Positions 5,773 through 35,221 of a stretch of 35,221 nt of DNA are shown one piece after another. Position 1 is the first letter of the stretch. Every line of letters starts with the position of its first letter. The translations under genes and the position numbers were made by a program. Source of the DNA: Mesotaenium endlicherianum (taxonomy: Eukaryota); assembly GCA_009602735.1 (NCBI GenBank), contig WELA01002449.1, positions 220,649-255,869 of the forward strand. Reading direction: 5' to 3'. The notes beneath the pieces were generated by a model that saw nothing but the letters and a program-made list of their open reading frames with translations, did not search any database and was not told the DNA's origin.

Positions 5773-6275
5773 TGTAGTGAAACAGGTAGATAAAGTACTT
5801 AATAAAGTAGAATACTTTATTTATTCAAGACTAGGATCTTTGAACACAAGTGGTAGCTTCTTGAAAGAGAGATAGCGTCTTGAAAGTTGATATATTTCTG
5901 GAATTTGGCAAGTACAAGAGTGATTCTAGAATGCCTTTCTATTTTCTAGCTCTTGCTTATATACTTGCTACGTAAGTCATTTCTAAGAAGGTGTATGTTG
6001 ATGTGTTGGCACCCAACACATCCCAAAACCTGCCACCTCTTTCAAGAATAATGTACACATGTCCTTTTGACCTAAAAATGGCATATTTGACTTTTGCCAC
6101 ATGGAGTTCTTCTAGGTCCTTCCTCTAAATTCGAAAATGCATCATAAGGTTAAAAGGACATAAACCAAGTCACTAGAGTATCTATTCACACTTGACTGCA
6201 CACAATATTACTCCAAAATTATTCAGAAATATTAAATTGAAAACTAACTAATATATTTTAACTCATATCACTACA
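5773..6275 (-). repeat. 3' LTR of element A
   Basis: Direct repeat of 21566-22065; adjacent PPT (GGGGGAGTGA on the minus strand, 6276-6285). Confidence 0.95.
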
Positions 6276-6310
6276 TCACTCCCCCGACATAAAATGCAAC
6301 GTCTCGGGCG

Positions 6311-6437
6311 TCAAGTCAAGTCTTACACACGTAAAGAAGATTAGTCAAAAGTTGAAGTCACGTGCCACACATGTAAAGAAGACTAGTCAAAGGCTCCAAG
6401 TCAGGTGATACACATGTAAGGCAGATTAGGCAAGGTC
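6311..6437. repeat. Three degenerate ~42-bp tandem units in the 3' UTR of element A
   Basis: AAGTCA..ACAC(A/G)TGTAAAGAAGA(C/T)TAGTCAA-like unit repeated three times. Confidence 0.65.
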
Positions 6438-7171
6438 GTGGCTGGTGGCTAGCCTACTCCTTGATGATAAGGAAAATAGTACAAGTTGGCTCAAAACCTG
6501 CCACAGATTCAAACATTTATAGCGTCCACATAACTAGTCCAAATCAAAAAATTCTAATGGTAGACGGAGCGCGTCAAAGAAATCTACTAGGTTGCCAAAT
6601 TTAAGAGCATTTCAACCTCTGGAGTGTTGTCGAGAGCAGAAAGAGCAGGAACTTCTGAAAATCATAAGTCCTTCTATGCTTCTTCAAATTCTGCAAAACT
6701 AGTTTCTAAATGGGCGCGGTCATATGTTCTACCATGGTCTTAAGTTTCAGAGCATTCCAAGTTCAGGGGAGGCACAATGTCAGAAGGCATATTTTGTCCT
6801 AAAAATGCTAGCAGTCTTACCCCCTCGTGTTCAGAGATTTTTATCTCTCTAACCACAGCTCCAAATTGAGCAAACTTAGACTCTAAAAAATTCCCTACTC
6901 ATGGAATAAAGCCAAGTATAATTTCAGAGACCTATTAGCAGTAGCAATTTTAGTTTTTTGTTCAGAAACTGCGAGAAGAGAAGAGTGTCTAATGTCAATT
7001 TTTCCTCTTTCTGGTTCTTGCAGGCTGCCTCCAAAGGGTCTCCTGCTGCTTCTGGATGATGGCAAGCTGCCTCCCTGAAGTCTTTGGGCTTCTAGTAGAG
7101 AGACTTGGGGCTGGTCCAAGATGGGGGTTGGCGGCATGGAAGCGTCTCAGCTTTCGCTGAACTTTGTCAAG

Positions 7172-10100
7172 TTAGTGCGCCGCCACCCAACTATTTTCAG
7201 AATCTGGATATCCTTTCCACTTGATCAAGTATTGCTGCTGTCTCTTGAAATTTCTCATAGCCAATATGTCTTTCACTTCATACTCCAAATGATCATCCAC
7301 TATTGTTGGGGTTGGTGGGGTTGTCACACGTCCTGGGAACGTGTTGTCGGGTTGCACATATGGCTTGAAGAGCGAAGCATAGAACACAGGGTCGATGTGC
7401 ATAGTCTGGGGAGGTTGTAGCTTGAAAGCAACTGGGTTGACTTGCTGGATTATCTTGAAGGGTCCCAAATACTTGGGAGAGAACTTGCTGCTGGCACGCC
7501 TGTTGTTCGGGAAAATATTTTTGGATGATAGTAACACCGTGTCGCCCACTTTGTATGCAATTTCTCTTCTAGACCTGTTTGCCATTTTTGCTTGAGCATC
7601 TTGCGGGTATTGTAGAGTTTTCGTGGCTGCTGCAAGGGCTTCCTCTAATGTCTCCAAAAAAATATGCCGCTGCAAGTACTTCGTCGTGGCCAGCCGTGAA
7701 GCTCAGTGGCGTGGTTGGATGGAAGCCATAATCGAGGAAGAAAGGGGACTCTAGGGTAGAGGCCTGCGCCGTGTTGTTGTAGGCAAACTCCAAGGGGGTC
7801 AAGTACATGTCCAATCTTGCTCTAAAGTAGATCGTAGGCCGTTAGAGAGGTCTTGAAAGTACGATTCCTACGCTCTGTTTGTCCATCTGATTGCGGGTGG
7901 TAGGCAGTGGGCATCCAGCGATGTACCCAAGATCTTGAAGAGATATTTCCAAAAATGGCTTGTGAATCTCGGGTCGCGATCATACATTATTCTCGATGGC
8001 AGGCCATGTAATCAAAATATGTTGTCAAAGATGAGTCTTGCAAACTGGGGTGCTGTAACCTTGGTCGTTGTTGGGATGAAATGAGCCATCTTTGTAAGTC
8101 TGTCCACCACTATTAATATTGCATTATGGCCGCGTGGTGTCACTGGCAAGTCCACAATGAGGTCCATGGAGATGTCTGTTCATTGTCTCTTGGGGATTGG
8201 TAGTGATTGAAGAAGTCCTCCCGCCTTTTGTGATGATGGTTTGATTCTTTGGCATGTGTTGCAGCTTTTGCAATACTCCTTGACTTGCTTAGACATGCCT
8301 GGCCAGCAATAAGTCCTTGCGAGCACGCCCGTGGTCTTTAATGTTCCAAAGTGTCCTCCAAGTGGGTTGTCGTGTGCTTCTCGAAGTAACAAGAGTTGTA
8401 GCTCTTGATTATTAGGCACGCATCTCTGTCCCGTGTCTTGTCTCACCCAATAATTTCCTTCTTGCTTCTTGTGTGGGTCAAGGGCTGCCTTGCCATTCGT
8501 GTAATAAAGGTCCGTGTCATAGGCGGCAAAAAATCGAGCTTCCAAATCTGTACTCAGGGATGTCATCACTGCATTTAATTGCAGCCTTGAGAGGGGGTCT
8601 GCCAAATTTGTCTTCCCGGGCTGGTACTGAATCGTGAAGTTGTATTGTTGCAAGTATCCACTCCATCTTGCTTGTCTTCTTGAGAGATACGGCTGCGTCT
8701 GGAGGTGCTTCAACGCTTTGTGGTCCGTTGTGACCAGCACCTTGCGACCTTAGACGTAGCAGCGCCAAACCTTCAGGGCATGTATAATCGCCAACGCCTC
8801 TCGCTCCGTGGTTGTATAATTTTGCTCGGCTGAATTCAGCTTTCTTGACTCGTAGGCGATGGGCTGCAGTTCCTTGCCTTGGTCTTGGAACAAGATTGCT
8901 CCTATGGCGTAGGAAGATGCATCGGTGATGACGTGGAAGGGCCAATCTGGGTTTGGACTTGGGAGTGTGAGCACCGGGGATGCCGTCAATCGTTGCTTCA
9001 GTTGTTGGAATGCTTCCTCCTCTTTCTTGGTCCATGTATATGGCCTGTCCTTCTTGAGTAGATCAATCAGGGGGGCTGCAATGCGCGAGAAGCTCTGGAT
9101 GAGTCTCCTGTACCAATTGGCAAATCCCAAGAATGATTGGAGTTCTTTCTTGGTCGTGGGGGTTGGCCATTCCTCCACCACCATGGTCTTCTTGGGGTCC
9201 ATCTTGATGCCATCAACAGTCGCGTGGAGACCTAGGAACTCCACTTCTTATTTGGCAAACTCGCACTTTGACTCCTTTGCAAATAGCTTGTTTTGCTTCA
9301 ATGCTTCGAGGACTTCTTTCAAGTTTCTTGCATGCTCTTCAAGGGTCTTGCTGTAGATAAGAATGTCATCGATGAATACCACCACAAATTTGTCCAACAT
9401 GGGCTGAAATATGGTGTTCATCATAGTCATGAAGTGGCTGGCGCGTTGGTGAGTTCGAATGGCAGGACCATGAACTCAAAATGTCCATATCTTGTCCTAA
9501 ACGCCGTCTTTTCTATGTCCGGTTCTACAATGCGAATCTGGTGGTAGCCGCTCCGTAAGTCATTCTTCGTGAAGTACTTGGCTCCAACCAGCCGGTCCAT
9601 GAGCTCATCCATACGCGGCAGTGGATGTCGATTCTTGATGATGATCTTGTTGAGGGCGCGATAGTCCACACACATCCTCAAGGTACCGTCCTCCTTCTTG
9701 ACAAATAGCACCGGGGCTCCAAATGGCGACTTGCTAGGTCAAATGAAGCCGTGCTCCAGTAGCTCTTTGATTTTCTTCTTGACTTCGTCTAGCTCCGTGT
9801 ATGACATCTTGAACGTAGGCCGAGAGATGGGCTTGCTTCCAAGCTCCAACTCTATCTTGTGGTCTACGAATCTCTTGGGGAGGAGGCCCTTGGGCAATTC
9901 CGGGGAGAACACTTCTTTGTAGTCTTCCAAGACTTCTTGTATCTCCTTGGGTATGGGGCTGTCTTCTTGACTTCGAGTGTCCTTCTTGATATCTTTTGGC
10001 ATGATTAAGGCCAAAATAAGAACGTGTCCCTTCCTCACAAGTCTTTTGAGTTGGAGGGCGGACAAGAGTATCTCGGGTCTCGGCTTCTTGGTGTCTTGGG

Positions 10101-10599
10101 TCTGGATTTTCTGGATTGCGCGCAAAACACAGATTCTTGAAGTGATGACGTTCTTGATCTTGATGGTACCGTCTCTCCAATCTACTTGGAGGTTGTGCTT
10201 GATCAACCAAGGCGTCCCTAGGATGACGTTGTACTTGCCCAATTGCATGGGGGAGAACACTACTCTATCTTTGAAGGACTTGATGGAGAGTGCCAAGGGG
10301 TACGTATTTTTGGAAGGGGTAATATAGGACAATCCATTGAGCATCATAATCTCCTTGTCCTGGTCAAGAGTGCGCATAGTAATACCATGCTTAGTGGCAA
10401 AATCTGCAGCAATGAAATTGCCTTGGGCTCCGCTGTCCACCAAGTTGTGGACCTTCTCTCCTCCAAGGTAGCCTCCCAAACTTATTCGGGCTGGAACGTC
10501 GTCTTCAACGGGGGTCTCCACCTCACTTGGCTTGTTGTCTTCTCGTGAGGTGGGTCTTGGGGTGGTAGGCTCCTGGCCTACCGGCGCTCTCCGTTTTTT
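7172..10599 (-). pseudogene. pol: pol of element A (protease, RT, RNase H, integrase, chromodomain), fragmented
   Basis: [85 protein letters not shown]. Spread over many short ORFs by stops and frameshifts. Confidence 0.95.
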
Positions 10600-11217
10600 G
10601 ACATCTTCTTAGGGCATGAGAGTGCACGGTGACCTTTCTCCTTGCAATAAAAGCATACTCCAGCCTTCATGAGAGTTTCTTTTTCAGCCGAGGAGAGTCT
10701 TGCTTTCACTCCTTGCTGGTTTCTTACATCATAATTGTCATTGGAGGGTCTTCCACTCTTCCAGGCAGCCGCGGGGTCTCTTCCGATGACTCCAATTTCC
10801 ATGGGTGTAGGTCCAGATTCGGATGTGGAAGGGGCTGCGTACACCCGCGTCGTCGGTGCCCGTGGAGATGAAGGCAATGAATGCTTGAAATCCAAAGTAT
10901 CCACCTTTTGGGCCACTTCAATGATCTTTGAGAAGTCCGTCAAGTCGCGTAATTCCTCTTCCTTTGCCACCTTGGGCTTGAGGGCAAAGATGTAGCGATC
11001 AATCTTCTCCTTGAGAGACATGTTGGGGATCTCAAGAGTGAGGGCGTGAGATCTGGATGTATACTCTTGATAATTTGGACGGACGTGGTTTGCTTGAGGT
11101 GGTGGAGCTTTCTTCGAGCAATCTTCTCCGCATTGATGGGCATGAATTGCTTCTTGAGGGCCTCACTAAAATCTGCCCATCTTGCATATGATGGTGGGGG
11201 TTCTTGGCCGAGCACGG
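10578..11217 (-). pseudogene. gag: gag of element A, 3' fragment (zinc knuckle)
   Basis: WADFSEALKKQF, GPTPMEIG, CFYCKEKGHRALSC; cut by the insertion of B at 11218. Confidence 0.9.
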
Positions 11218-11936
11218 TGAAATGAATCGACTTACCAAATAGGCGATTAACAATTAATAAAGATCTTTATATCAGCAAGTAATCTTTATGGTATTTCCGT
11301 TAACTCGTTAAACGGCAAAGGACAATACACTAGCAGGGAATACTACTCGTCAGTCAAATGAGAGTAAACTAGCATCAATAATGCAAATCAGTAAACTCAT
11401 ACATAAGCAAGGTTAGAAGACAGTGCGTATCAATGGCTTCTCGCCTTGGATTCAGATCTCTCTCAGTAAGCTGTACAAGAGAGTTGGCCTCGTTTCCGAA
11501 TGCCGAACTCGAGAGCAATGCCTAGCATATGTACATGGAATGAGTTTACTGTTCAACGGTCAGTGCGATGGCACCGCCTACCCGGGAGTTAACCACGTTG
11601 GTAGGACCTCGGTTAACCAAATCCACCGCCATCTCCCATCATCCCGAATAGCCATCCATCATAGGGATGTCATCTGGCTATTCATCTAGCATATCGCACT
11701 TAGATGCATATCAAGGCAGTTCGCTGCTACCGAGTACGGAAGTCAGCTGGCTGTCAAAGAATGGGTCAGCAAGCTGACTTATATGGACTTCAGCCTGCTG
11801 CTTCCGGCTGAGTCATTAAACTGATAATTATGTAAAGTCCAGCAGACTGACTATTAACTAAAGTTCAGCAGGCTGAACTTAATTAACTATTATATTTAAA
11901 TGAATATTATATCCACTAATATACTGATTCATTACA
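11218..11936 (-). repeat. 3' LTR of element B (719 bp)
   Basis: Repeat of 19292-20037, 32201-32921 and (inverted) 25134-25853. Confidence 0.96.
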
Positions 11937-11950
11937 ATCCCTCCAACTTA
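11937..11950 (-). promoter_or_regulatory. Polypurine tract of B
   Basis: TAAGTTGGAGGGAT immediately before the TGTAATG start of the 3' LTR. Confidence 0.85.
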
Positions 11951-12049
11951 ACTTGTTGTCGCCTCGACAACATTAAACTGCAGAAATTTTAAATAAGGGA
12001 ACTGAACCTGACCAGCCTCCCTTACTGACTGCCTCTTCAGCGTGTCACC

Positions 12050-13726
12050 TTAAGGGGTTGTTCCTGGGGCTTCAGGATCAGGAGACGGAGATCTGGACCT
12101 AGATCTGGACAGCCCTCTAGGTCTGTCAGCTGGCCTTCTAAAGAACCCTGTTTGCTCTAAAGTTGGCCCTCGAGGAGAACGGAGGATGGTGGCCTGCTCT
12201 TCAACCACTTGGGTGTTGATTCCCACATAGACAGGCATTCCAGTAGGATGCTGAAATACATTGGCTAGAGGTACATGCCCCTGAGCGGAGGGGGAGGCTG
12301 GCATACCTCTGGCCCACCCGCGTGTCCCTCTTCTGGCACCCCTGTCCTCTGGGGATTTCTGTCTGTGTCTGCTGCCCAGTACAGTCAGATCAGCTTCTTC
12401 CCCTGCTTGGGCAGGTGGGCTGGGGGAGCGAGCGCGGGGTCCAGTTGTCGCCATAACGGGGATCACATTCCACACACCTGATCGTGGTTCTTTAGGAAGT
12501 GCCACTGCCTGTCCCTGGGTATCCTGAGTACCTGCTGCTGATGCTTCTCCTCTGCCTTGTTCTTCTTCCTCATCCTCCTCATCCTCCTCCTCGGAGAGAG
12601 TAGGGGTCTCGTCCACTAAGTCGTCCTGCTCCCTAGTAGACATGGAGTAGTCTACCGACCTCCCTTTCTTAGGGCGCGCTGGAGGTTGCTTGGCCTTCAG
12701 CCTACTGATATCTATCCGGCCTGCATTCTTTGCCCATTTGACAAAGGCATGCTTTCCCTTAGAGAAGTACTCTCTTCCCCTCCTCCTATGTTCCTTGGTC
12801 TCTGCATTCATATTGCTCAGGCATCCATTCAGCCTGGGGTCCCAAGGGGCAATGTGAGGTGGTAGGATGAGATAGCCGTCTAGGCCATAGTGGAAGTCAT
12901 CCGGTTGGGCTCGGTCACACTCCTGCTTCTTATTTGTGACGGTCATCCACCTCCAGTCTGTTGGCTGCTGGTAGTACTGGGGTCCGTGCTCAGCCTTCCT
13001 CAGTTTACACGGGAACCAGTGGGGAGAGAACATCTGCTGTCCTGCTTCCCTGGCCAAGTACTCCCAGCTCCTTCTCTCAACTTCATTGTAAGCTGGCAGG
13101 AGTGTGAGGTAGAATACCGTATCCTTAAAGCTATCGGGCCGCATGCTCACCATCCGGATGAGTCTCTGATCTCCCACTATTCCCGGTATGGGGACCGGCT
13201 TGTCCTCTGAATCATCTGCGAGATACCGGGCCTGCTCTGCTGTATAGCCCACCATCTTAGCATAATCTTCGTAAAGGACCACGCCGGTGTGTGTCTCGAT
13301 GTACCTGTCCAGTGCTGTAGCTCCTTCCTTCTGTAGCAGTGTTGTCTGTTCCAGCCTGTTGATCTCCTGGGCTGCCAGCAATGCTTCCTTCAGGTTATCG
13401 AAGTTTTGGCCACCCACCACAGTATACCTGTAAGTGGCCAAGCTCTTCTGTCTGTCCGCTTCAATCTTTTTTCTTTTCTCCTCTTCTGCCGCTGCCGCTT
13501 CTTCTTGCTGTTTCTTCTGTCTCTCCTCCTCAGCCTTCCTGAGGTTTTCCGCTTCCTGATCCTTCTTCCTCTGTGCCTCTTCTGCCGCCTCTTGTTGCTT
13601 GCGGACCCTTTCTTGTTCTCTCCTGGTGAGGGACGTCGCCGCCAGCTCCTTCTGGTATTGCTCCATTGTCCTCCTGGCTTCTTCTGCCTTGCGCTTTCTG
13701 TCCTCCTTTTGTGTGGTGGGCGCCAT
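12050..13726 (-). CDS. ORF3 of element B: 558-aa protein of unknown function (charged coiled-coil N-terminus, aromatic-rich core, acidic tract, RS/SP-rich tail)
   Basis: Long open frame, nearly identical in D and with a diverged homologue in C. ATG 13726 was chosen because it follows CAG|G and aligns with the start in C. No signal peptide or transmembrane segment is visible. Confidence 0.9.
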   Translation of the reverse strand: MAPTTQKEDRKRKAEEARRTMEQYQKELAATSLTRREQERVRKQQEAAEEAQRKKDQEAENLRKAEEERQKKQQEEAAAAEEEKRKKIEADRQKSLATYRYTVVGGQNFDNLKEALLAAQEINRLEQTTLLQKEGATALDRYIETHTGVVLYEDYAKMVGYTAEQARYLADDSEDKPVPIPGIVGDQRLIRMVSMRPDSFKDTVFYLTLLPAYNEVERRSWEYLAREAGQQMFSPHWFPCKLRKAEHGPQYYQQPTDWRWMTVTNKKQECDRAQPDDFHYGLDGYLILPPHIAPWDPRLNGCLSNMNAETKEHRRRGREYFSKGKHAFVKWAKNAGRIDISRLKAKQPPARPKKGRSVDYSMSTREQDDLVDETPTLSEEEDEEDEEEEQGRGEASAAGTQDTQGQAVALPKEPRSGVWNVIPVMATTGPRARSPSPPAQAGEEADLTVLGSRHRQKSPEDRGARRGTRGWARGMPASPSAQGHVPLANVFQHPTGMPVYVGINTQVVEEQATILRSPRGPTLEQTGFFRRPADRPRGLSRSRSRSPSPDPEAPGTTP

Positions 13727-13930
13727 CCTGCACATGTAACCAGGGCACAAGTTAGTAGGATATGGACCTTTGTCATAGGGATTGCAGGAAGTATGTTAGT
13801 ATTTAGTATAGTGGCTTCGCTGCTGTTTACCTTACAGGATGATTGCTAAAAGTTGACGTAGTTGCGATGCGCTACACATAAACGTATGAGTGTGTTTTTA
13901 TCGCTCTCGCTCACTAACTGTCATATATTT

Positions 13931-13944
13931 TCCCCTCCAACTTA
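13931..13944 (-). promoter_or_regulatory. Second, internal PPT-like tract just downstream of pol in B
   Basis: TAAGTTGGAGGGGA shares 12 nt with the terminal PPT; also at 35161-35174 (D) and 31192-31206 (C). Confidence 0.7.
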
Positions 13945-13993
13945 AATGGAGACAGGACCGCCTGTCACCTTCCCGTGTCAACTGAAATGACAG

Positions 13994-16900
13994 TTATGGA
14001 GGGACTCCAGCGGCCCGAAGGTGGAACCGTGTCAACGCCCCTTTGGCATTGGTCAAGTGGTCCTTAAACTCCCAAGTGTCCCCAGAGGCATCGTAACCCT
14101 TCCATCGAATGAGGTATTTCATGACATATTTAGACGATCGACGGACCGAGCGAGCGTCTAAAATCTCATCGACCTCATATTCCTCAGGGTCGCCGTCCCG
14201 GACAGCGGGGACCGGTCCCGGTTGGACAGGGAACCGACCTGTGAACAGTGTATCACCTTTGATGTACGGTTCCAGGAAGGAGACATTAAAGACCGGGTGC
14301 CCCTTGTATTCAGCTGACATGTTCAGTTTGTAAGCATTCTGACCGACACGACGGACCACCGAATATGGACCGACCCAGACAGGGCCAAGCTTTTTCTTGA
14401 CCACACCAGGGAGGTACAGGTGCTGAGAATGCAGTTTGACTAAATCCCCCTTGGAAAATGTCAGTTCCCGACGGTGTTGATTAGCGTATTTTTGTTGGTT
14501 TTCTTGGGCCGTGTGCAAGTTTCGTTGGACTTCTGACAGGGTGTCAGCAAACTCCTGAGTTAACTGGAGGGAGACCGGGTTGTCAATCCCTTCAGGGTGA
14601 GTTAAAGATTCCCCTAGCACATCTAGAGGAGACTTAGGGACTCTACCCAGGCTGAGTTCAAAAGGAGTTTTGCCCGTTGACGCGTGCACCGCACTGTTGA
14701 CCGCAAACTGAATTTGAGGCAACAGGTCATCCCAATTATCTTGTTTTTGGTTAATATATGCTCTCAGCACCTCCTGCAGAACTCGGTTAGTTCTTTCAGT
14801 CTGCCCATCAGTCTGAGGGTGGTTTGCTGTGCTGAGCAGCTGTTTGACTCCCATTAACCCCATTAAAGCTCTCCAGAACTTAGAGGTGAATTTTGAGTCT
14901 CTGTCTGAGATGATATTAGAAGGGAGCCCATGTTGGCATACTACATGGTTGTAAAACTGTCTCGCTGTTTCGAGTGCAGTCACTTTGACAGTTGTGGGGA
15001 TAAAAATGACCATTTTTGTCAGTTTATCCACGACTACCAGTATTGAATCATGCCCGTTGGCAGTTCTTGGTAGTGAGACCACCCAGTCCATGGATATAGT
15101 TTCCCAGCGTCCCGCTGGGATGGGTAGCGGTTGCAAGAGACCTCCGGGTGGTGTGTGCCGAGACTTATTTCTCTGACACTGGTCACAGGACTTGACATAT
15201 TTCAAGACCTCCCGGGGTAACCCCTCCCAATGATAATGTTTTGCCAGTTTGCCAACAGTTTTGGCCTGCCCCAAATGTCCACCCAGGAGACTGTCATGAG
15301 CTTGACTCAGTAAGAGAGACCTTATTTCCAAGTTATTAGGAATGACCAGCTTCAGCCTGCCTGAAGTGGTTTCAGTCACCCAGACCCCTCCCTTGAGCTT
15401 ATACCCGAGTGCAGTAGCACGACACACACCAGTAGTGGGGCTGGGCTCAAATGTTGGGTCAGAAAGGTAGGCTTTCCTAAGTTGTTCAAGGAAGGACTTT
15501 TTCACCTTTAGTGAAGTGAGTGCACACAGGACTTTATCTACAGCATGCTGACTAAAGTTCCTTTCTTGCAAGTCAGGTCTTCTAGAGAGTGCATCAGCAG
15601 GATTCAACTTCCCTGGTTTGTAGTCGATCTGGACTTGGAACTGCTCCAGCATCTGGCTCCAGCGGTTCTCCCTCCTCGACAGCTTGGACTTCTTCTGAAA
15701 GTGGGTCAGAGCTAGATGATCTGTAATCACCTTAAAAGCTTTACCATGTAAGTATGCTCTCCACTGTTTGAGTACATGAATGATAGCTAGCAGCTCTTTA
15801 TCATGCACTGAGTAATTAATCTCCGCTGGATTAAATTTCATAGACTCATACAACACAGGATGCCACTCCTGCCGTACCTTACCATCCTTTGTGGTTTTGT
15901 CAGCAGGCTGCAACAAAATAGCACCCATGGCAAAATCAGAGGCATCAGTAACCACCTGCACCGGTTTGCTGGGGTCATACACGGCTAGCACTGGGGCAGA
16001 ACAAAGGGCATCTTTAAGGGTCTGGAAGGCAGCCTGCTGCTCTTCCCCCCACACATACCCGATGTCTTTCTTAGTAAGGTCAGTCAGTTTACTGGCCTTT
16101 GTGGAATAATTCTCAATAAATCTCCTATAGTAGTTAGCCAACCCGAGGAAGGATCTAACTTCAGAGACAGACTGTGGTACTGGCCAGTCCCTTATGGTCT
16201 GGACTTTCTTAGGATCCACACTGATGCCCTCTTTACTGACAACGTGGCCTAAGAATTCAATACTTTCCTTAAAGAAATCACACTTGCTCATTTTAGCATA
16301 CAAGTGATTTTTCCGCAGAGTGTCCAGCACTTTCTTTAAGTGTTCAGTGTGCTGAGCTTCATCTTTAGAGAAAATTAAAATATCATCCAGGAAAACTTGC
16401 ACAAACTTATCCAAATAAGGTCTGAAAATGTCATTCATAGCACCCATAAAGGTAGCAGGAGCATTAGTCAGTCCAAATGGCATCACGTTGAACTCATAGT
16501 GTCCATAACGTGTGCGGAAAGCAGTCTTGTGTTCATCCCCCTCAGCAATTCTGATTTGATGATAACCACTCTTGAGATCTATCTTACTGAACACCTTAGC
16601 GCCAGACAGGGTATCAAGCAAGTCCTCGATCCTGGGTAAAGCATACTTGTTCTTTACTGTAATTCTGTTCAGGGCTCTGTAATCCACACACATCCGCATA
16701 CTGCCATCCTTTTTCTTAACAAATAGGATAGGTGCGCCGTACGGTGATTTACTGGGAGAAATGTAACCATTTTCCTCCAGCTCTGCAATCTGTGTTTTCA
16801 ACTCCTCGCTCTCCAAATAAGACAAGCCATAAGTGCGTTGCCAGGGTGGCTGGCTACCAGGTAATAGATCAATCCTATGATCTACTTCCCTTTTAGGGGG

Positions 16901-17803
16901 TAGTCCTGGAGGCATGTTAAACACATCAGTGTACTGAGCAACAATTTTTGCAGCAGTAGGGTGCTCCGGAGGGCTTACCTTTTTCTCAACCACTTCTTCA
17001 GGTTGAGGAGGTACCTCTCTTAGCAGCAGACAGAACATTCTGTCTTCCTTCTGGTTCCAGCTTTTGACGAACTCCATTGCATTCAGCAACTTGCATCCTT
17101 CTGGAAGCCTCTTCTTTTCCTTCATTTGCCATCCACACAGGACAAGAGGAAGAGCACTGGTGGGTGCCAAGTCAGTCTGCCCATCACTGGCTCCTCTCAC
17201 TTTAACTGTACCTCTGCTCCAACACACTTCAGCTTGATGTCTATTAAGCCAGGACCTGCCTAGCACGAGATCATAAAAGCCAGTGTTGAGTACCTCAAAT
17301 GTAAGCGTTTCAGTTAGAACTGCAATGCCAGAACCTAACTGGACCTCAATAGGCTTGGTTATAACTCCTCCCGGGATACTTGAGGCATCTCCAAGGAATA
17401 TTTTTCTATTCCCTTGGGTGACAGTAGGCAGCCTTAGCCGCTTAACTAAGTCCTTGTGAATAAAAGTATGTGACGCCCCTCCGTCAACAAATGCCCTCAC
17501 CTTCCTACCTGCAATCATGCAATGCAGTAGGATAGGGGGGACTGTCTTTTCCTGACTTTCGCATTGTTCTCCTGACGTAGCAAAGAAATGTTGGACATCA
17601 GGTGGAACAAGAGCATCCAGAGTGTGCACTCTCTGGACGTCTATATTACTGATGGTCTCCTTTATCTGTTTGTCAGGCATGCATAGTGAATCCAGTTCAG
17701 CAGGACCCATAATACCTGCTACGAGGGCAGCTAGTGACGACTCACTATCTCTAGCATCCTCACAGTCAGTAGACTGGATTACTGACTGTTGCTGTCTTTT
17801 AAA
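13994..17803 (-). CDS. pol: Pol polyprotein of B (PR-RT-RNase H-integrase-chromodomain), probably made as Gag-Pol by -1 frameshift
   Basis: [42 protein letters not shown] zinc finger; SMDW/SDRD/QTER catalytic [30 protein letters not shown]. The frame is open upstream of ATG 17710 through the slippery site. Confidence 0.97.
17762..17803 (-). promoter_or_regulatory. Predicted -1 ribosomal frameshift signal of B
   Basis: U UUA AAA in the gag frame (17803-17797), 7-nt spacer, perfect 10-bp stem ACAGUCAGUA/UACUGACUGU; pol is in the -1 frame. Confidence 0.8.
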
Positions 17804-19257
17804 GGCTGGTCTTTTCTCTCGACCTTAGGCAGGTGCTTGACCGGACACTGTTCTCTGTAGTGGCCTTTCTGCTGACAATGGTAGCAAGTAGATTTTGCTG
17901 AGGCTGGTCTCGGCTTAGTCCTACCACCACCCCTTCCATAGCCACCTCGAGAGGGACCACCTCTACCTCTAGACTGAATAGCATTGTACTCATACTCATA
18001 TTCATCACCCTGATTATCCTCAGCCTGGTCTCCTTCAACTGCATTGTAGGAACCGTGGGGCTTTTTGACAATCTTAGACACCAAAGCGTTACTCTGGCGC
18101 TTGTGATTGAACTGCTGCTGATCCCAGGCGTCAGCATCCTGGATCAAGTCAGCCAGTTTCTCATACTTTTTCTCAGCAAAATGACCAGAGACCTCGGATT
18201 TCAAGCCATACCTGAAGTATGCTATCCTATACCGTTCTGGCAAATCAGGCTGCTTCATCATGTTCTCTTGGAACTTTTGAGCAAACTCAGCAACTGAAGT
18301 GGTCTGCTTCAGTGTCAGGGAGATCATCGCATAGATAGCTTTCTCCTGCTGGTTGATGACATCAAACTTCTCATGCAACTTCTCGACAAACTCTACCCAC
18401 GTAGGGTCACCGAGTTGCCGAGCCTTACGCTCTTCCTTCCAGTAAAGCCACCAGTCTGCGGCACTGCCTTTCAGTAGCGCACCGGTGTGCCTGACCTTCT
18501 CGTAATCTTGCAGTTCTGGGTAGTTCTCCAGCCACTGCTCAACATCCGCGAGAAACTTGATCAGGTAATATTTTCTGTTTCCCTCAGGATCATAGTCCTG
18601 GGGAGGTTTCGGCTTGGGCTTACTAGGCCCTCGGCCACCACCACTAGTGGTGTGAGACCCCAGTTGGTCTCTGTCCCGGAGTAGGGACATTATGATTCTT
18701 TTGTCCTCCTGCTGGGACTGATACATGGTCGCCATTTGCGACTGCATCTGAACGAACAATGCTCCCAAGTCTACATTTTGGGGTGGTAGATTAGCAAATG
18801 CAGCAGCAGCATTGGCATCTACTCGCTGAGTAGTGTCCTCAACAATCCCTCTTGCTCCTGCAGCAGCAATTCCTGCCGCATTCAGCCGGTCACGTATTTG
18901 ACCTAGGGGTACATTGAGTTGTACGGCAGGAGGTGGGTTCAGAACATTGGCCCTTGATGCCATAAGTTCTTCAACAGTGCGCTCGTCAGCTGGCTGTCCT
19001 TCCCTCCTTTGTATATCTTCAGCGGCCTTTGCTACTTGTTCAGCTTCTAGTCTGGCTATCTCCTCCTCAGCTTGCTGAGCTGCGACTGAGGCAATAGCAG
19101 CTGCCTCATCTGCAGCCTCCCTAGCTGCAGTATCCGCTACTGCTTCCGAATAGGTACGGTTTCCCGCTACATGGCTTTCCGCCTGGTTTTCGACATTCTC
19201 GTTATCCTGGTTCTCCATGTCTCGGGAGTTGCTAGTTTGAGACCTTGTCCTTACCAT
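17779..19257 (-). CDS. gag: Gag of element B (492 aa)
   Basis: Starts MVRTRS 21 nt after the [39 protein letters not shown] tract and [14 protein letters not shown] knuckle. Confidence 0.96.
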
Positions 19258-19278
19258 ACAAAGAAGACTGTGATAACT

Positions 19279-19290
19279 GCTCCGATACCA
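19279..19290 (-). promoter_or_regulatory. Primer-binding site of B (tRNA-iMet type)
   Basis: TGGTATCGGAGC, 1 nt inside the 5' LTR. Confidence 0.88.
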
Positions 19291-19291
19291 C

Positions 19292-20037
19292 TGAAATGAA
19301 TCGACTTACCAAATAGGCGATTAACAATTAATAAAGATCTTTATATCAGCAAGTAATCTTTATGGTAATTTCCGTTAACTGGTTAAACGGCAAAGGACAA
19401 TACACTAGCAGTGAATAATACTCGTAAGTCAAATGCGAGTAAACTAGCATCAATAATGCAAATCAGTAAACTCATACATAAGCAAGGTTAGAAGACAGTG
19501 CGTATCAATGGCTTCTCGCCTTGGATTCAGATCTCTCTCAGTAAGCTGTACAAGAGAGTTGGCCTCGTTTCCGAATGCCGAACTCGAGAGCAATGCCTAG
19601 CATATGTACATGGAATGAGTTTACTGTTCAACGGTCAGTGCGATGGCACCGCCTACCCGGGAGTTAACCACGTTGGTAGGACCTCGGTTAACCAAATCCA
19701 CCGCCATCTCCCATCATCCCGAATAGCCATCCATCATGGGGATGTCATCTGGCCATTCATCTAGCAGGTGGTACTTAGATGCATATCAAGGCAGTTCGCT
19801 GCTACCGAGCACGGAAGTCAGCTGGCTGTCAAAGAATGTGTCAGCAAGCTGACTTAAGTTGACTTCAGCCTGCTGCTTTTGGCCGAGTCATTAAACTGAT
19901 AATTATGTAAAGTCCAGCAGACTGATTATTAACTAAAGTTCAGCAGGCTGACTACTAACTAAAGTTCAGCAGGCTGAACTAAATTAACTATTATATTTAA
20001 ATGAATATTATATCTACTAATATACTGATTCATTACA
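19292..20037 (-). repeat. 5' LTR of element B (746 bp)
   Basis: Matches the 3' LTR plus one extra 26-bp unit and a 1-bp indel. Confidence 0.96.
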
Positions 20038-20493
20038 CACGGGGTGCACCCGTAGCTTGATATACAGTTGCTTGATAGTTACGCCACCATGATGTTGCTG
20101 CTCCTCTAAGTAAGGTAACGGCAAAGGGAACGTAGTCCTCCTCGGGTACTTCAAGGAATGCGAGGTACGTTTCCACTTGGTAGAGCCATAAGTTCAAGTT
20201 GGCTCCTTTCCCGGGGTTGAAAGTGTTGGGTTTGCCGGGCTTGATGAGTTTCCTTGCTCTCGTAGGCTCTTGTGGAGGCGCTTGAGCCGTGGCTGGATTT
20301 GGAGCGTTGCTTGCAATAGGGGCAGTTATGGCAGCCATAGCTTCTCTTGACGCTTGTACGGTTGCTTCATAGGTGGCCAAGCCCACTTGGTTGTGGATAG
20401 CCATTAGGAAGGCTGCCCACTCATTTGGGGGAACTCCTTGCGATGGGGTCAACCTTGCCAGAGCGGCTATCATGGGATCTGATGGTGCTCCTC
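20038..20493 (-). pseudogene. gag: gag of element A, middle fragment
   Basis: KPNTF..WLYQVETYL..LLRGAATSWW retrotransposon Gag motif; lies between element B and the solo LTR. Confidence 0.9.
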
Positions 20494-21414: not shown

Positions 21415-21528
21415 TCCTTGTGGTGGCAGATTTTCTTTATTGGGCTCTCCCGTCGGTGCTGGAGGAGGGTCTTTTAGAGGTGTATTGCCTCCTTCAAAAG
21501 CTTGTTGTTGATCTTGAGGATAGGCCAT
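21415..21528 (-). pseudogene. gag: gag of element A, N-terminal fragment
   Basis: ATG 20 nt after the PBS. MAYPQDQ...NLPPQG joins in frame to APSDPMIAALARL after the solo LTR is removed. Confidence 0.85.
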
Positions 21529-21548
21529 CTTCTTGTGCTACCAAAGTG

Positions 21549-21564
21549 CCTGGCTCCAATACCA
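21549..21564 (-). promoter_or_regulatory. Primer-binding site of A (tRNA-iMet type)
   Basis: TGGTATTGGAGCCAGG, 1 nt inside the 5' LTR; the plant iMet consensus is TGGTATCAGAGCCAGG. Confidence 0.85.
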
Positions 21565-21565
21565 C

Positions 21566-22065: not shown

Positions 22066-22070
22066 CAACT

Positions 22071-25077: not shown

Positions 25078-25133
25078 TCTATAGAAATTCAAGCCTTGCA
25101 ATTTAACCTCTAGTGCAAAAACTCAACAATAGC

Positions 25134-25853: not shown

Positions 25854-25887
25854 GTGGTATCCGAGCAGTTATCACAGTCTTCTTTGT

Positions 25888-27366: not shown

Positions 27367-30300
27367 TCCAGTCTACTGACTGTGAGGATGCTAGAGATAG
27401 TGAGTCGTCACTAGCTGCCCTCGTAGCAGGTATTATGGGTCCTGCTGAACTGGATTCACTATGCATGCCTGACAACCAGATAAAGGAGACCATCAGCAAT
27501 ATAGACGTCCAGAGAGTGCACACTCTGGATGCTCTTGTTCCACCTGATGTCCAACATTTCTTTGCTACGTCAGGAGAACAATGCGAAAGTCAGGAAAAGA
27601 CAGTCCCCCCTATCCTACTGCATTGCATGATTGCAGGTAGGAAGGTGAGGGCATTTGTTGACGGAGGGGCGTCACATACTTTTATCCACAAGGACTTAGT
27701 TAAGCGGCTAAGGCTGCCTACTGTCACCCAAGGGAATAGAAAAATATTCCTTGGAGATGCCTCAAGTATCCCGGGAGGAGTTATAACCAAGCCTATTGAG
27801 GTCCAGTTAGGTTCTGGCATTGCAGTTCTAACTGAAACGCTTACATTTGAGGTACTCAACACTGGCTTTTATGATCTCGTGCTAGGCAGGTCCTGGCTTA
27901 ATAGACATCAAGCTGAAGTGTGTTGGAGCAGAGGTACAGTTAAAGTGAGAGGAGCCAGTGATGGGCAGACTGACTTGGCACCCACCAGTGCTCTTCCTCT
28001 TGTCCTGTGTGGATGGCAAATGAAGGAAAAGAAGAGGCTTCCAGAAGGATGCAAGTTGCTGAATGCAATGGAGTTCGTCAAAAGCTGGAACCAGAAGGAA
28101 GACAGAATGTTCTGTCTGCTGCTAAGAGAGGTACCTCCTCAACCTGAAGAAGTGGTGGAGAAAAAGGTAAGCCCTCCGGAGCACCCTACTGTTGCAAAAA
28201 TCGTTGCTCAGTACACGGATGTATTTAATATGCCTCCAGGACTACTCCGTAAGAGGGAAGTAGATCATAGGATTGATGTATTACCGGGTAGTCAGCCACC
28301 TTGGCAACGCACTTATGGCTTGTCTTATGTGGAGAGCGAGGAGTTGAAAACACAGATTGCAGAGCTTGAGGAAAATGGTTATATTTCCCCCAGTAAATCA
28401 CCTTACGGCGCACCCATCCTATTTGTTAAGAAAAAGGATAGCAGTATGCGGATGTGTGTGGATTACAGAGCCCTGAACAGAATTACGGTAAAGAACAAGT
28501 ATGCTTTACCCAAAATCGAGGACTTGCTTGATACCCTGTCTGGTGCTAAGGTGTTCAGTAAGATAGATCTCAGAAGTGGTTATCATCAAATCAGAATTGC
28601 TGAAGGGGATGAACACAAGACTGCCTTCCGCACACGTTATGGACACTATGAGTTCAACGTGATGCCATTTGGACTGACTAATGCTCCCGCAACCTTTATG
28701 GGTGCTATAAATGACATTTTCAGGCCGTATTTGGATAAATTTGTGCAAGTTTTCCTGGATGATATTTTAAATTTGTCTAAAGATGAGACTCAGCACGCTG
28801 AACACTTAAAGACAGTCATGGACATTCTGAGAAAAAATCACTTATATGCTAAAATGAGCAAGTGTGATTTCTTTAAGGAAAGTATTGAATTCTTAGGCCA
28901 CGTTGTCAGTAAAGAGGGCATCAGTGTGGATCCTAAGAAAGTCCAGACCATAAGGGACTGGCCAGTACCACAGTCTGTCTCTGAAGTTAGATCCTTCCTT
29001 GGGTTAGCTAACTACTATAGGAGATTCATTGAGAATTATTCCACAAAGGCCAGTAAACTGACTGACCTTACTAAGAAAGACATCGGGTATGTGTGGGGGG
29101 AAGAGCAGCAGGCTGCCTTCCAGACCCTTAAAGATGCCCTTTGTTCTGCCCCAGTGCTAGCCGTGTATGACCCCAGCAAACCGGTGCAGGTGGTTACTGA
29201 TGCCTCTGATTTTGCCATGGGTGCTATTTTGTTGCAGCCTGCTGACAAAACCACAAAGGATGGTAAGGTACGGCAGGAGTGGCATCCTGTGTTGTATGAG
29301 TCTATGAAATTTAATCCAGCGGAGATTAATTACTCAGTGCATGATAAAGAGTTGCTAGCTATCATTCATGTGCTCAAACAGTGGAGAGCATACTTACATG
29401 GTAAAGCCTTTAAGGTGATTATAGATCATCTAGCTCTGACCTACTTTCAGAAGAAGTCCAAGCTGTCGAGGAGGGAGAACCGCTGGAGCCAGATGCTGGA
29501 GCAGTTCCAAGTCCAGATCGACTACAAACCAGGGAAGTTGAATCCTGCTGATGCACTCTCTAGAAGACCTGACTTGCAAGAAAGGAACTTTAGTCAGCAT
29601 ACTGTAGATAAAGTCCTGTGTGCACTCACTTCACTAAAGGTGAAAAAGTCCTTCCTTGAACAACTTAGGAAAGCCTACCTTTCTGACCCAACATTTGAGC
29701 CCAGCCCCACTACTGGAGTGTGTCGTGCTACTGCACTCGGGTATAAGCTCAAGGGAGGGGTCTGGGTGACTGAAACCACTTCAGGCAGGCTGAAGCTGGT
29801 CGTTCCTAATAATTTAGAAATAAGGTCTCTCTTACTGAGTCAAGCTCATGACAGTCTCCTGGGTGGACATTTGGGGCAGGCCAAAACTGTTGGCAAACTG
29901 GCAAAACATTATCATTGGGAGGGGTTACCCCGGGAGGTCTTGAAATATGTCAAGTCCTGTGACCAGTGTCAGAGAAATAAGGCTCGGCACACACCACCCG
30001 GAGGTCTCTTGCAACCGCTACCCATCCCAGCGGGACGCTGGGAAACTATATCCATGGACTGGGTGGTCACACTGCCACGAACGGCTAACGGGCATGATTC
30101 GATATTGGTAGTCGTGGATAAACTGACAAAAATGGTAATTTTCATTCCCACAACTGCCAAAGTAACTGCACTCGAAACAGCGAGACAGTTCTACAACCAT
30201 GTAGTATGCAACATGGACTACCCTCTAATATCATCTCAGACAGAGACTCAAAATTTACCTCCAAGTTCTGGAGAGCTTTAATGGGGTTAATGGGAGTCAA

Positions 30301-31142: not shown

Positions 31143-31477
31143 CTGTCCCTTCAGTAGACATGGGAAGGTGACAGGAGGTCCTGTCTCCATATAAGTTGGA
31201 GGGGGATGTGACAGTTAGTGACAGTTGTGACAGGCAGCCCACCTTTATAATTAAGTTGGAGGAAGTGGTATTCTGTTGCGGGATCAGCCGGAAAATCTCT
31301 GATAACCATATTACACACTCAACCTGCGCTCACACTCACTTTCTCTCCCTTATATTCACTCACACCAGGTATTTCACACTAGGAACTCTCTCGATCGCGT
31401 TCCTCTTCATCAAGAGCATTCAGTAGCGGCAAAATATCATGACTTCACTAACTGCATTGTGTTTATGATTGAGCAGG

Positions 31478-32200
31478 ATGACTCAAAAGTCGAAACTCAA
31501 GAGGAAGAGAAGGGCGGAAGAGGCACATGCAGAATACTTGCAATTCCGTGGAGACATCGAATCATCCTCCATCTCCGCTCGGGAATCACAACGACTCCAA
31601 CAACAGCGAGAGGCACAGAAGAAGAAGGAGGAGGAGGAACAGGCCAGACTGAGGCAGGAAGAACTGGACAGAAAAGCCACAGAGGAGGCCAAGAAAGCAG
31701 AGGAGGAGAGGCAAGCTGAGGAGAAGCGGAAGCAGCAGGCTGAAGAAGAGCAAAGGAGAATCAGCAGCTACCGCTACACAGTACTGGGCAAGGGCTTTGA
31801 TCTACTGGAGGAGGCCTTCAAGTATGCTCAGAGAAGTCGCAGTGAGTCACAGAAGGACATCCTCCAGAGGGAAGGGGAGACATCCGAAAACTTTGACAAG
31901 TATATAGAGGTCAGCACGATTACGCCAAGATGGTAGGATTTACGGTCAGAGAGGCCAAGGCAATGGCCCAGGTGAACGAAGCAGGGGCTGTATCAATTCC
32001 TGGTATCTGGGGGGAAGATAGGGTCATCAGGATGATCCCCATGGACGCGGACAGCTTTAAGGACTCTACATCCCATAACAGGTTCAAGGCCATGTATAAT
32101 GAGGTGGAGAGAAGGAGGTGGGAATTCTTGGCCAAGGAAACCAGTCAGCTAGACTTTGCATAGCACTGGTACCCTTGTACTCTTAAAAGGACAGACCCTA
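31478..32200 (+). pseudogene. Divergent ORF3 homologue of element C (frameshift ~31915, stop 32161, cut by D)
   Basis: YRYTVLG, DYAKMVG, IPGIWGEDRVIRM, DSFKD, YNEVERRRWEFLAKE and HWYPCTL align with B ORF3 YRYTVVG, DYAKMVG, IPGIVGDQRLIRM, DSFKD, YNEVERRSWEYLARE and HWFPCKL. Confidence 0.9.
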
Positions 32201-32921: not shown

Positions 32922-33034
32922 ATCCCTCCAACTTAACTTGTTGTCGCCTCGACAACATTAAACTGCAAAAGCTTTAAATAAAGAAACTGACCCTGACCAG
33001 CCTCCCTTACTGACTATCTTTTCAGCCTGTCACC

Positions 33035-34711
33035 TTAAGGGGTGGTTCCTGGGGCTTCAGGATCAGGGGACGGAGATCTGGACCTAGATCTGGACAGCCC
33101 TCTAGGTCTGTCAGCTGGCCTTCTAAAGAACCCTGTTTGCTCTAAAGTTGGCCCTCGAGGAGAACGGAGGATGGTGGCCTGCTCTTCAACTATTTGGGTG
33201 TTGATTCCCACATAGACAGGCATTCCAGTAGGATGCTGAAATACATTGGCTAGAGGTACATGCCCCTGAGCGGAGGGGGAGGCTGGCATACCTCTGGCCC
33301 ACCCGCGTGTCCCTCTTCTGGCACCCCTGTCCTCTGGGGATTTCTGTCTGTGTCTGCTGCCCAGTACAGTCAGATCAGCTTCTTCCCCTGCTTGGGCAGG
33401 TGGGCTGGGGGAGCGAGCGCGGGGTCCAGTTGTCGCCATAACGGGGATCACATTCCACACACCTGATCGTGGTTCTTTAGGAAGTGCCACTGCCTGTCCC
33501 TGGGTATCCTGAGTACCTGCTGCTGATGCTTCTCCTCTGCCTTGTTCTTCTTCCTCATCCTCCTCATCCTCCTCCTCGGAGAGAGTAGGGGTCTCGTCCA
33601 CTAAGTCGTCCTGCTCCCTAGTAGACATGGAGTAGTCTACCGACCTCCCTTTCTTAGGGCGCGCTGGAGGTTGCTTGGCCTTCAGCCTACTGATATCTAT
33701 CCGGCCTGCATTCTTTGCCCATTTGACAAAGGCATGCTTTCCCTTAGAGAAGTACTCTCTTCCCCTCCTCCTATGTTCCTTGGTCTCTGCATTCATATTG
33801 CTCAGGCATCCATTCAGCCTGGGGTCCCAAGGGGCAATGTGAGGTGGTAGGATGAGATAGCCGTCTAGGCCATAGTGGAAGTCATCCGGTTGGGCTCGGT
33901 CACACTCCTGCTTCTTATTTGTGACGGTCATCCACCTCCAGTCTGTTGGCTGCTGGTAGTACTGGGGTCCGTGCTCAGCCTTCCTCAGTTTACACGGGAA
34001 CCAGTGGGGAGAGAACATCTGCTGTCCTGCTTCCCTGGCCAAGTACTCCCAGCTCCTTCTCTCAACTTCATTGTAAGCTGGCAGGAGTGTGAGGTAGAAT
34101 ACCGTATCCTTAAAGCTATCGGGCCGCATGCTCACCATCCGGATGAGTCTCTGATCTCCCACTATTCCCGGTATGGGGACCGGCTTGTCCTCTGAATCAT
34201 CTGCGAGATACCGGGCCTGCTCTGCTGTATAGCCCACCATCTTAGCATAATCTTCGTAAAGGACCACGCCGGTGTGTGTCTCGATGTACCTGTCCAGTGC
34301 TGTAGCTCCTTCCTTCTGTAGCAGTGTTGTCTGTTCCAGCCTGTTGATCTCCTGGGCTGCCAGCAATGCTTCCTTCAGGTTATCGAAGTTTTGGCCACCC
34401 ACCACAGTATACCTGTAAGTGGCCAAGCTCTTCTGTCTGTCCGCTTCAATCTTTTTTCTTTTCTCCTCTTCTGCCGCTGCCGCTTCTTCTTGCTGTTTCT
34501 TCTGTCTCTCCTCCTCAGCCTTCCTGAGGTTTTCCGCTTCCTCATCCTTCTTCCTCTGTGCCTCTTCTGCCGCCTCTTGTTGTTTGCGGACCCTTTCTTG
34601 TTCTCTCCTGGTGAGGGGCGTCGCCGCCAGCTCCTTCTGGTATTGCTCCATTGTCCTCCTGGCTTCTTCTGCCTTGCGCTTTCTGTCCTCCTTTTGTGTG
34701 GTGGGCGCCAT
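33035..34711 (-). CDS. ORF3 of element D (558 aa)
   Basis: Differs from B ORF3 at only three visible residues (S/P, Q/E, V/I). The start region is duplicated around an N (assembly join). Confidence 0.88.
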   Translation of the reverse strand: MAPTTQKEDRKRKAEEARRTMEQYQKELAATPLTRREQERVRKQQEAAEEAQRKKDEEAENLRKAEEERQKKQQEEAAAAEEEKRKKIEADRQKSLATYRYTVVGGQNFDNLKEALLAAQEINRLEQTTLLQKEGATALDRYIETHTGVVLYEDYAKMVGYTAEQARYLADDSEDKPVPIPGIVGDQRLIRMVSMRPDSFKDTVFYLTLLPAYNEVERRSWEYLAREAGQQMFSPHWFPCKLRKAEHGPQYYQQPTDWRWMTVTNKKQECDRAQPDDFHYGLDGYLILPPHIAPWDPRLNGCLSNMNAETKEHRRRGREYFSKGKHAFVKWAKNAGRIDISRLKAKQPPARPKKGRSVDYSMSTREQDDLVDETPTLSEEEDEEDEEEEQGRGEASAAGTQDTQGQAVALPKEPRSGVWNVIPVMATTGPRARSPSPPAQAGEEADLTVLGSRHRQKSPEDRGARRGTRGWARGMPASPSAQGHVPLANVFQHPTGMPVYVGINTQIVEEQATILRSPRGPTLEQTGFFRRPADRPRGLSRSRSRSPSPDPEAPGTTP

Positions 34712-34993
34712 CCTGCNTTCTGTCCTCCTTTTGTGTGGTGGGCGCCATCCTGCACATGTAACCAGGGCACAAGTTAGTAGGATATGGACCTTTGTCATAG
34801 GGATTGCAGGAAGTATGTTAGTATTAGTATAGTGGCTTCGCTGCTGTTTACCTTACAGGATGATTGCTAAAAGCTGACGTAGTTGCGATGCGCTACACAT
34901 AAACGTATGAGTGTGTTTTAGGGTGAGTTAAGTGATGTAGTGTTATGCGAGGCCCTTTTTCCTTCTGCTCAAGGTGCGTTATGTGGGCCAAGT

Positions 34994-35163: not shown

Positions 35164-35221
35164 CCTCCAACTTAAATGGAGACAGGACCGCCTGTCACCT
35201 TCCCGTGTCAACTGAAATGAC

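Follow-up and report, generated by a model that had tools for sequence, protein, structure and literature searches.

How a retrotransposon might express a gene placed behind its gag and pol genes is the question raised by a 35,221-nucleotide (nt) stretch of the Mesotaenium endlicherianum genome (GenBank assembly GCA_009602735.1, contig WELA01002449.1, forward-strand positions 220,649 to 255,869), which we call the window and in which all positions below are counted from its first letter. The window is a nest of retrotransposons with long terminal repeats (LTRs): an older, decayed copy (A) and the copies B, C and D, which are chromodomain-bearing Ty3/gypsy elements with gag, pol and a third open reading frame (ORF), ORF3. 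Just upstream of the ORF3 start codon the B-type and C-type elements share two conserved motifs, ACTAAC and CAG|G (the bar marks the presumed cut). From the motifs themselves we suggest, at a probability of about one half, that these are the branch point and the 3′ splice site for a spliced sub-genomic ORF3 RNA.

In B, which reads on the minus strand, the putative 3′ splice site GCAG|G occupies 13727..13731 and would be cut between 13728 and 13727: CAG lies at 13730-13728, a single G at 13727 and the ORF3 ATG at 13726-13724. Upstream of it stands a branch-point-like motif, TACTAACT at 13750..13757 on the same strand (TACTAAC at 13757-13751), whose presumptive branch A, at 13752, is 24 nt ahead of the G of the AG. 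A candidate local donor-like site, AAG|GTAAAC at 13825..13833 (minus strand; GT 13830-13829), would delimit a putative local intron of 103 nt (13830..13728). Copy C, on the plus strand, has its putative 3′ splice site GCAG|G at 31473..31477 (AG 31475-31476, G 31477), directly before the ORF3 ATG at 31478-31480; its branch-point-like motif is CACTAACT at 31446..31453 (plus strand; CACTAAC at 31446-31452), with the branch A at 31451, 25 nt ahead of the G of the AG, and its candidate local donor-like site is CAG|GTATTT at 31366..31374 (plus strand; GT 31369-31370), giving a putative local intron of 108 nt. The motifs, the branch-to-AG distance of 24-25 nt and the intervals of 103 and 108 nt were all found where the original prediction, made from the letters of this DNA, had placed them, and they comprise the signals of a spliceosomal 3′ splice site: a YAG (Y, pyrimidine) preceded at 15-40 nt by a branch motif, with a GT donor upstream.

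Copy D, also on the minus strand, had been described as the same as B. The arrangement of motifs is indeed the same, at 34749..34851 (GT 34851-34850, TACTAAC 34779-34773, AG 34751-34750, G 34749, ATG 34748-34746), as is the branch A-to-AG distance of 24 nt, but the interval from GT to AG is 102 nt, one base below that of B, and the start of ORF3 carries a duplication, described below. In B and D the interval from branch motif to CAG contains no further AG, and a second TACTAAC lies further upstream in both (13801-13795 in B, 34823-34817 in D). In C the CAG belongs to a tandem arrangement, ..GAG CAG|G, with the GAG at 31471-31473, and is not the first AG downstream of the branch motif. The upstream sequence of C had also been called otherwise unalignable; this does not hold throughout the spacer between pol and ORF3, for a 13-mer, TGACAGTTAGTGA, and a 9-mer, ACACACTCA, are common to the spacers.

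What this shared arrangement means depends on ORF3 itself. ORF3 of B (12050..13726, minus strand) has 558 codons plus a stop. ORF3 of C (31478..32200, plus strand) is a diverged homologue, truncated by the LTR of D and disrupted by a frame change at about 31897-31933 and by a stop at 32161-32163; it matches that of B at 2e-35 in tblastn, in an alignment which begins at the first Met. Between the two, the proportion of differing silent sites (pS) is 0.78-0.79 and that of replacement sites (pN) 0.31-0.37 (137 and 81 aligned codons). A pS of 0.78-0.79 is the level of random sequence: the silent sites are saturated and the replacement sites are not, so ORF3 is a real protein-coding gene long under purifying selection and must therefore be expressed somehow. 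Because the silent sites are saturated, leftover neutral similarity cannot explain the non-coding blocks that the two versions have in common.

These blocks are ACTAACT, at -30 (B) or -31 (C) from the ATG, and GCAGG, at -5..-1 in both versions of ORF3. Their rarity was gauged in 20,000 dinucleotide-preserving shuffles, made per spacer or of the last 110 nt of C compared with B. A strict rule for single sequences (CTAAC, with the branch A 20-30 nt before an AG that ends 0-1 nt before the ATG) was satisfied by 0.97% of shuffled spacers of B and 0.47% of those of C, a looser rule by 3.0% and 1.2%, and the most permissive rule (YTRAY followed at 15-40 nt by an AG, the AG at most 5 nt from the ATG) by 14% and 13%. 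When the last 110 nt of C were shuffled and compared with B, a common 7-mer within ±3 positions arose in 2.2% of the shuffles and identity of the last 5 nt in 0.6%; the two arose together in 1 of 20,000. Since this joint match is so rare and the silent sites are saturated, the two upstream blocks are under constraint. On the two strands of the window GCAGGATG occurs four times, each time at an ORF3 start, and of the 46 CTAAC motifs eight have, as first AG at 15-40 nt, a YAG, two of the eight being the sites of B and D. The context of the gag start is TTTGT ATG, unlike GCAGG, and therefore GCAGG is not simply the start-codon context of the element. Conservation of the acceptor arrangement in two variants, as originally predicted, thus holds for the B/D and C lineages; the analogy with env, as far as the protein is concerned, does not, as we discuss below.

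The conserved parts are those that a 3′ splice site needs: CTAAC, a distance of 24-25 nt, Y at -3, AG, and G as first base of the exon. If the sites are used, the full-length RNA would stay unspliced and serve as genome and as gag-pol message, while a fraction of the RNA would be spliced at CAG|G, by which the ORF3 ATG would become the first usable start. Each putative intron contains two upstream ATGs, at 13776 and 13735 for B and at 31439 and 31465 for C, which splicing would take out.

We drew RNA reads from six raw-read runs of the same species label, of each of which 6-24% was read. For B (11100-20100), runs X10, X13 and X16 were read to 6%, 13% and 24% and gave 160, 626 and 380 reads at a likeness of at least 94%; for C and D (25100-35221), X16, X17, X18 and X14 were read to 18-24% and gave 459-1346 reads at a likeness of at least 90%. 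Among these reads a sense GT..AG joint, 26647->29236 (7 reads), runs from gag to the RNase H/integrase region and skips 2588 nt, and an antisense GT..AG joint, 29237->29444 (12 reads), removes a 206-nt intron (29444..29238, minus strand) whose acceptor abuts that of the sense joint; the two acceptors read TTGTTGCAG|C and GTCAGCAG|G. By these joints, transcripts of this retroelement family undergo splicing at ordinary GT..AG sites in the organism, though each joint may itself represent cryptic splicing or a transcribed deleted copy.

As to the donor, the local sites of B and C stand almost equally far ahead of the acceptor, at 103 and 108 nt, and have AG|GTA in common. Other donor-like sites common to the two spacers are AAG|GTGACA, just past the pol stop, and ACA|GTTAGT, inside TGACAGTTAGTGA. 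In gag, the donor AAG|GTCAGG at 26647 is joined in vivo to a pol acceptor, and so a distant donor is possible too. The donor of the proposed ORF3 intron may thus be local (103-108 nt upstream, behind an internal promoter), at another site in the spacer, or distant, in the leader or gag.

Several observations weigh against splicing before ORF3. On B, X10, X13 and X16 contained no joint at 13728/13830, over a region (13207-13808) where depth was only 0 (X10, X13) or about 1-2.5 (X16); the only joints listed on B were 11214->20053 and 14229->14519. Likewise, none of the seven joints listed for X16, X17, X18 and X14 fell at 31368/31477 or 34851/34750, with a sense depth of about 0-2; in X16-X18 it was 0.6-0.8 in the bin with the C site and 0.07-1.3 in that with the D site. 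At such a depth the RNA reads have no power and speak neither for nor against splicing, and the method does detect it, joints elsewhere being represented by 5-13 reads. A long record (12515-13990) in X1, a contig set of uncertain kind and probably DNA, is colinear across the B site, and a search of that one set for copies lacking the intron returned none, only the colinear form. Measured against a generic consensus, the local donors of B and C are only average: they agree with it at 7 of 9 positions, a score that 26 of the 474 GT sites in element B also reach. The conserved TGACAGTTAGTGA contains AGTTAGT, whose reverse complement is ACTAACT, and ACTAACT also overlaps a recurring motif of TAACTG type; it could therefore serve to bind a protein. 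In C, an 18-bp stem (31209-31231/31435-31456) is predicted between the TGACAGTTAGTGA region and the branch motif and would hide the latter, no such long-range stem being predicted in B, and the GAG of C stands 3 nt before its CAG. Pyrimidines, counted by eye, make up only about 50-60% of the bases from branch motif to AG. Lastly, the whole comparison spans two independent lineages only, the protein and contig searches described below having yielded no further family members.

The blocks could also be real and serve another function: an internal promoter, possibly a two-way one, may have repeated binding sites in ACTAACT/AGTTAGT, GCAGG may be part of the start context, and the ORF3 RNA may be an unspliced one that begins in the spacer. 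We regard this as possible, if rather unlikely. It would account for the recurrence of the same core, in opposite orientation, within the TGACAGTTAGTGA of every ORF3-bearing copy (twice in D), for the TAACTG/CAGTTG-type motifs that recur just past the pol stop, and for the TATA-like stretches (noted by eye) upstream of ACACACTCA in two variants, and antisense RNA, which stops within the spacer, fits a transcription start there. However, an unspliced leader would be hampered by the upstream ATGs close to the ORF3 ATG, one of which, in C, opens an overlapping out-of-frame reading; the 5 nt before the ATG are exactly of the form YAG|G, and the gag start context is different; the motif of B is TAACTT, not TAACTG; and no transcription start was mapped in the RNA runs. 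The antisense RNA suggests another explanation, in which the blocks would be the start region or first-exon signals of an antisense unit over the 3′ end of pol and would play no part in ORF3 expression. Runs X16-X18 are stranded, as we took from 6 of 6 reads at the two GT..AG joints (first mate opposite to the RNA), and in them the 3′ end of pol and the early spacer yield mostly antisense RNA (29832-31521 in C; 14110-15012 in B); across 30170-31521 it exceeds sense RNA about 10:1 in all three runs, and the antisense intron 29444..29238 (GT..AG, minus strand) is in use. Antisense depth is 12-17 in 30846-31183, 3.6-5.9 in 31184-31521 and about 0 thereafter, so that it reaches 17 against less than 1 for sense, and the RNA stops within the spacer. 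Its end, placed roughly (in 338-nt bins) at 31290-31320, is nevertheless upstream of the blocks at 31446-31477, and the blocks keep a fixed distance from the ORF3 ATG in two variants, which points to the sense gene; we consider this explanation very improbable.

Chance resemblance, with functionless motifs and an ORF3 expressed otherwise or not at all, is improbable as well. Its appeal is that the splice-like signals were sought after the fact, that 13-14% of shuffled spacers satisfy the loosest rule, and that no spliced reads were seen; but two blocks at the same offset, with silent sites saturated, were met in only 1 of 20,000 shuffles, GCAGGATG stands at ORF3 starts in four of four cases, and ORF3, being under purifying selection, is expressed somehow. 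Three narrower candidates were rejected. A conserved long-range stem as the cause of ACTAACT is predicted in C only, not in B, and the spacers fold no better than their shuffles (z 0.22 and -0.51). A descent of ACTAAC from an ancient stop codon of pol fails because the similar CACTAACTTG of the older element A, at 7176, is a stop that came prematurely, within the chromodomain, and because many stops interrupt the frames ahead of the branch motifs. The third candidate, an ORF3 message behind the sense reads of X17 on the 5′ part of ORF3 of C (depth 4.55, with no reads upstream), was set aside because a rearranged copy can explain them: an opposite-strand joint, 29911/31540, seen in 13 reads from three runs, points to transcription of a rearranged copy whose ORF3 is partly inverted beside pol.

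The spacer also offers a view of how the ORF3 region may have moved. In B it covers 13727..13993 (minus strand) and contains a copy of the polypurine tract at 13945-13932, TGACAGTTAGTGA at 13923-13911 and ACACACTCA at 13895-13887. The 13-mer is present in B, C and D (twice in D), and the ACACACTCA block lies at -169/-165 from the ORF3 ATG in the two variants. The internal copy of the polypurine tract, TTAAGTTGGAGGG, stands about 50 nt past the pol stop, at 13945-13932 in B and 35175-35162 in D; copies in C are at 31192-31205 and 31251-31262, and the true polypurine tract is at 11951-11937 in B and 32936-32922 in D. The likeness between B-type and C-type elements ends at 13932/31204, the site of the internal copy. 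Because of this boundary, and because gag-pol of B and C is 98% identical while the silent sites of ORF3 are saturated, we conclude that the ORF3 region behaves as a cassette which is exchanged at the internal polypurine tract, perhaps by template switching.

Copy D shows rearrangements of its own in this region. Around a single N at 34717 (region 34709-34753), 37 nt are duplicated in tandem. GCAG|GATGGCG.. is thereby present twice (at 34753 and at 34716), and the first ATG, at 34748, no longer shares the frame of ORF3; the duplication may be real or an assembly seam. When read from the second ATG of the duplication, ORF3 of D (33035..34711, minus strand) differs from that of B in 3 of 558 residues. 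The spacer of D also carries an insert of 209-210 nt (34917-35125), with two tandem copies, at 34994-35163, of an 85-nt unit that holds TGACAGTTAGTGA. RNA reads skip this insert (joint 34916->35126, 5 reads), and the transcribed copies are therefore of the B form.

The protein encoded by ORF3 gives no support to the analogy with env that the original prediction had drawn. It has no membrane segment (the top Kyte-Doolittle mean over 19 residues is 0.73), and a Pfam scan assigned it to no family. Its AlphaFold model, built on a 4-row alignment, has a mean predicted local distance difference test (pLDDT) score of 41 and is of low confidence throughout, save for one long helix that spans residues 5-98 and contains many E, A, K, R and Q. 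The middle part, approximately residues 100-345, includes the stretch best conserved between B and C, and the tail, rich in P, R, G and S, is predicted to be disordered. With a predicted helix and a disordered tail, and with no sign of the membrane glycoprotein with signal peptide and anchor that marks env-bearing, errantivirus-like elements, ORF3 is not an envelope protein. Relatives were sought widely and none was found: none in a word-based search of 5.8 billion clustered proteins with the whole protein and with residues 98-345 (covering lengths of 306-977 residues), none in a full HMMER scan of 1.84 billion representatives (0 matches), none in the ESM Atlas, and none in metagenome, viral and prokaryote-genome contigs. 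By analogy, a nearer comparison may be a nuclear accessory protein such as CERV of the Caenorhabditis elegans element Cer1.

The elements that carry ORF3 are chromoviruses by their pol domain order and chromodomain, by LTRs with TG..CA ends, target duplication, primer binding site and purine tract, and by a gag with capsid and knuckle. Copy B is a complete LTR element (11218..20037, minus strand), flanked by a 5-bp target duplication, CACGG, at 11213-11217 and 20038-20042. Its LTRs, at 11218-11936 and 19292-20037, measure 719 and 746 nt, have TG..CA ends and are about 97% alike. One base after the LTR is the primer binding site, TGGTATCGGAGC (19290-19279, minus strand), which is probably that of an initiator tRNA, and directly before the 3′ LTR, on the minus strand, is the purine-rich tract TTAAGTTGGAGGGAT. 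The gag gene (17779..19257, minus strand) encodes a Ty3 capsid-like domain and a CCHC knuckle (Pfam Ty3_capsid 4e-10, Retrotrans_gag 3e-8, zf-CCHC 8e-4), and pol (13994..17710, minus strand) encodes protease, reverse transcriptase, RNase H, integrase, an SH3 domain and a chromodomain (RVT_1 2e-41, RT_RNaseH 2e-33, Integrase_H2C2 2e-18, rve 1e-5, SH3_Tf2-1 4e-15 and, at the C-terminus, Chromo 2e-8 at residues 1178-1230). The pol frame is -1 relative to gag and is open from about 14 codons ahead of the gag stop (17710-17830, minus strand), which suggests that gag-pol is made by -1 frameshifting. For the C-terminus of pol, the metagenome searches returned only three short, distant loci of 32-41% identity, which lack an ORF3 region, and the viral contigs returned none.

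Copy C, on the plus strand from 25134, has a gag-pol 98% identical to that of B and different sequence after pol; it breaks off at 32200/32201, where the 3′ LTR of D cuts into it. Copy D is a B-type element on the minus strand that extends from 32201 to the end of the window. Copy B is inserted into the gag of the older chromovirus, which has no ORF3-like sequence, and the joint 11214->20053 in the reads is the empty site, from a copy of that older chromovirus which B does not interrupt. The older element, at about 5773-22070 on the minus strand, has many stops, with its pol at 7175-10608, its gag at 10581-11162 and 20033-20473, and LTR remnants at 5773-6280 and 21566-22070 that are 91-93% alike. 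The window also contains a decayed piggyBac-type transposase (DDE_Tnp_1_7; 4273-5774, plus strand) in three frames, beside a run of N at 3461-3504.

Considering other elements, insect errantiviruses of the gypsy type make env from a spliced sub-genomic mRNA, and their full-length RNA must stay unspliced as the genome. The same is stated for retroviruses (PMC10309623). Retroviral and errantiviral env resemble the arrangement proposed here in having a 3′ splice site just before the start codon and an unspliced genome RNA; they differ in that ORF3 is not an envelope protein, that its element is a chromodomain Ty3/gypsy element rather than an errantivirus, and that the splice site here is putative. 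In Ogre elements a spliced intron lies inside the coding region, where it separates pol domains, and must be removed to make pol. Like the candidate intron before ORF3, it is a short sense intron, kept because the RNA is only partly spliced; the candidate intron, in contrast, would sit in the 5′ leader of an accessory gene.

Further parallels come from Cer1, a Ty3/gypsy element of C. elegans. One study (PMC10309623) describes both retroviral env and the CERV of Cer1 as made from spliced messages, and CERV as a nuclear protein needed for the export of unspliced genomic RNA. As described there, CERV has a spliced message, a nuclear location, a helical, zipper-like part and a basic motif, and consensus acceptors before the predicted initiator ATG in related species were recognised from alignment alone, as is the case here (PMC10309623). 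The two differ in that CERV has five exons, some of them common with gag, whereas the homology of B and C starts at the ORF3 Met with no upstream coding exon evident, and CERV has no sequence similarity to ORF3. A role of ORF3 in RNA export would be pure analogy. Among plant elements, splicing of barley Bagy-2 is cited in a review (PMC7264820), in which Bagy-2 and others appear as LTR elements with an extra sense ORF after pol and a reported spliced transcript; unlike ORF3, their ORFs are there called env-like for their membrane segments. Another paper (PMC11728184) places the extra ORFs of plant chromoviruses 5′ of gag-pol and describes 3′ ones as typical of Athila, and a thin search of the literature on chromoviruses turned up no ORF like ORF3.

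Extra ORFs are common in LTR retrotransposons, and their expression and function are mostly obscure. If our reading of the ORF3 acceptor is true, the general picture would be unchanged, as spliced accessory messages are already known in retroviruses, errantiviruses, Cer1 and some plant elements; the less ordinary parts are the protein without relatives and the swapping of its cassette. A bolder proposal, which we think unlikely, is that a chromovirus lineage with a relative-less accessory cassette, swapped as one piece at a second polypurine tract between gag-pol backbones that are nearly identical, expressed by way of the conserved acceptor one base ahead of its ATG, and encoding a long basic/acidic helix, an uncharacterised middle domain and a serine/arginine-rich tail, has independently evolved a Rev- or CERV-like regulator of its own RNA. 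More simply, the acceptor would show that a chromovirus carries ORF3 as an accessory gene under regulation, and in chromoviruses ORFs after pol are unusual.

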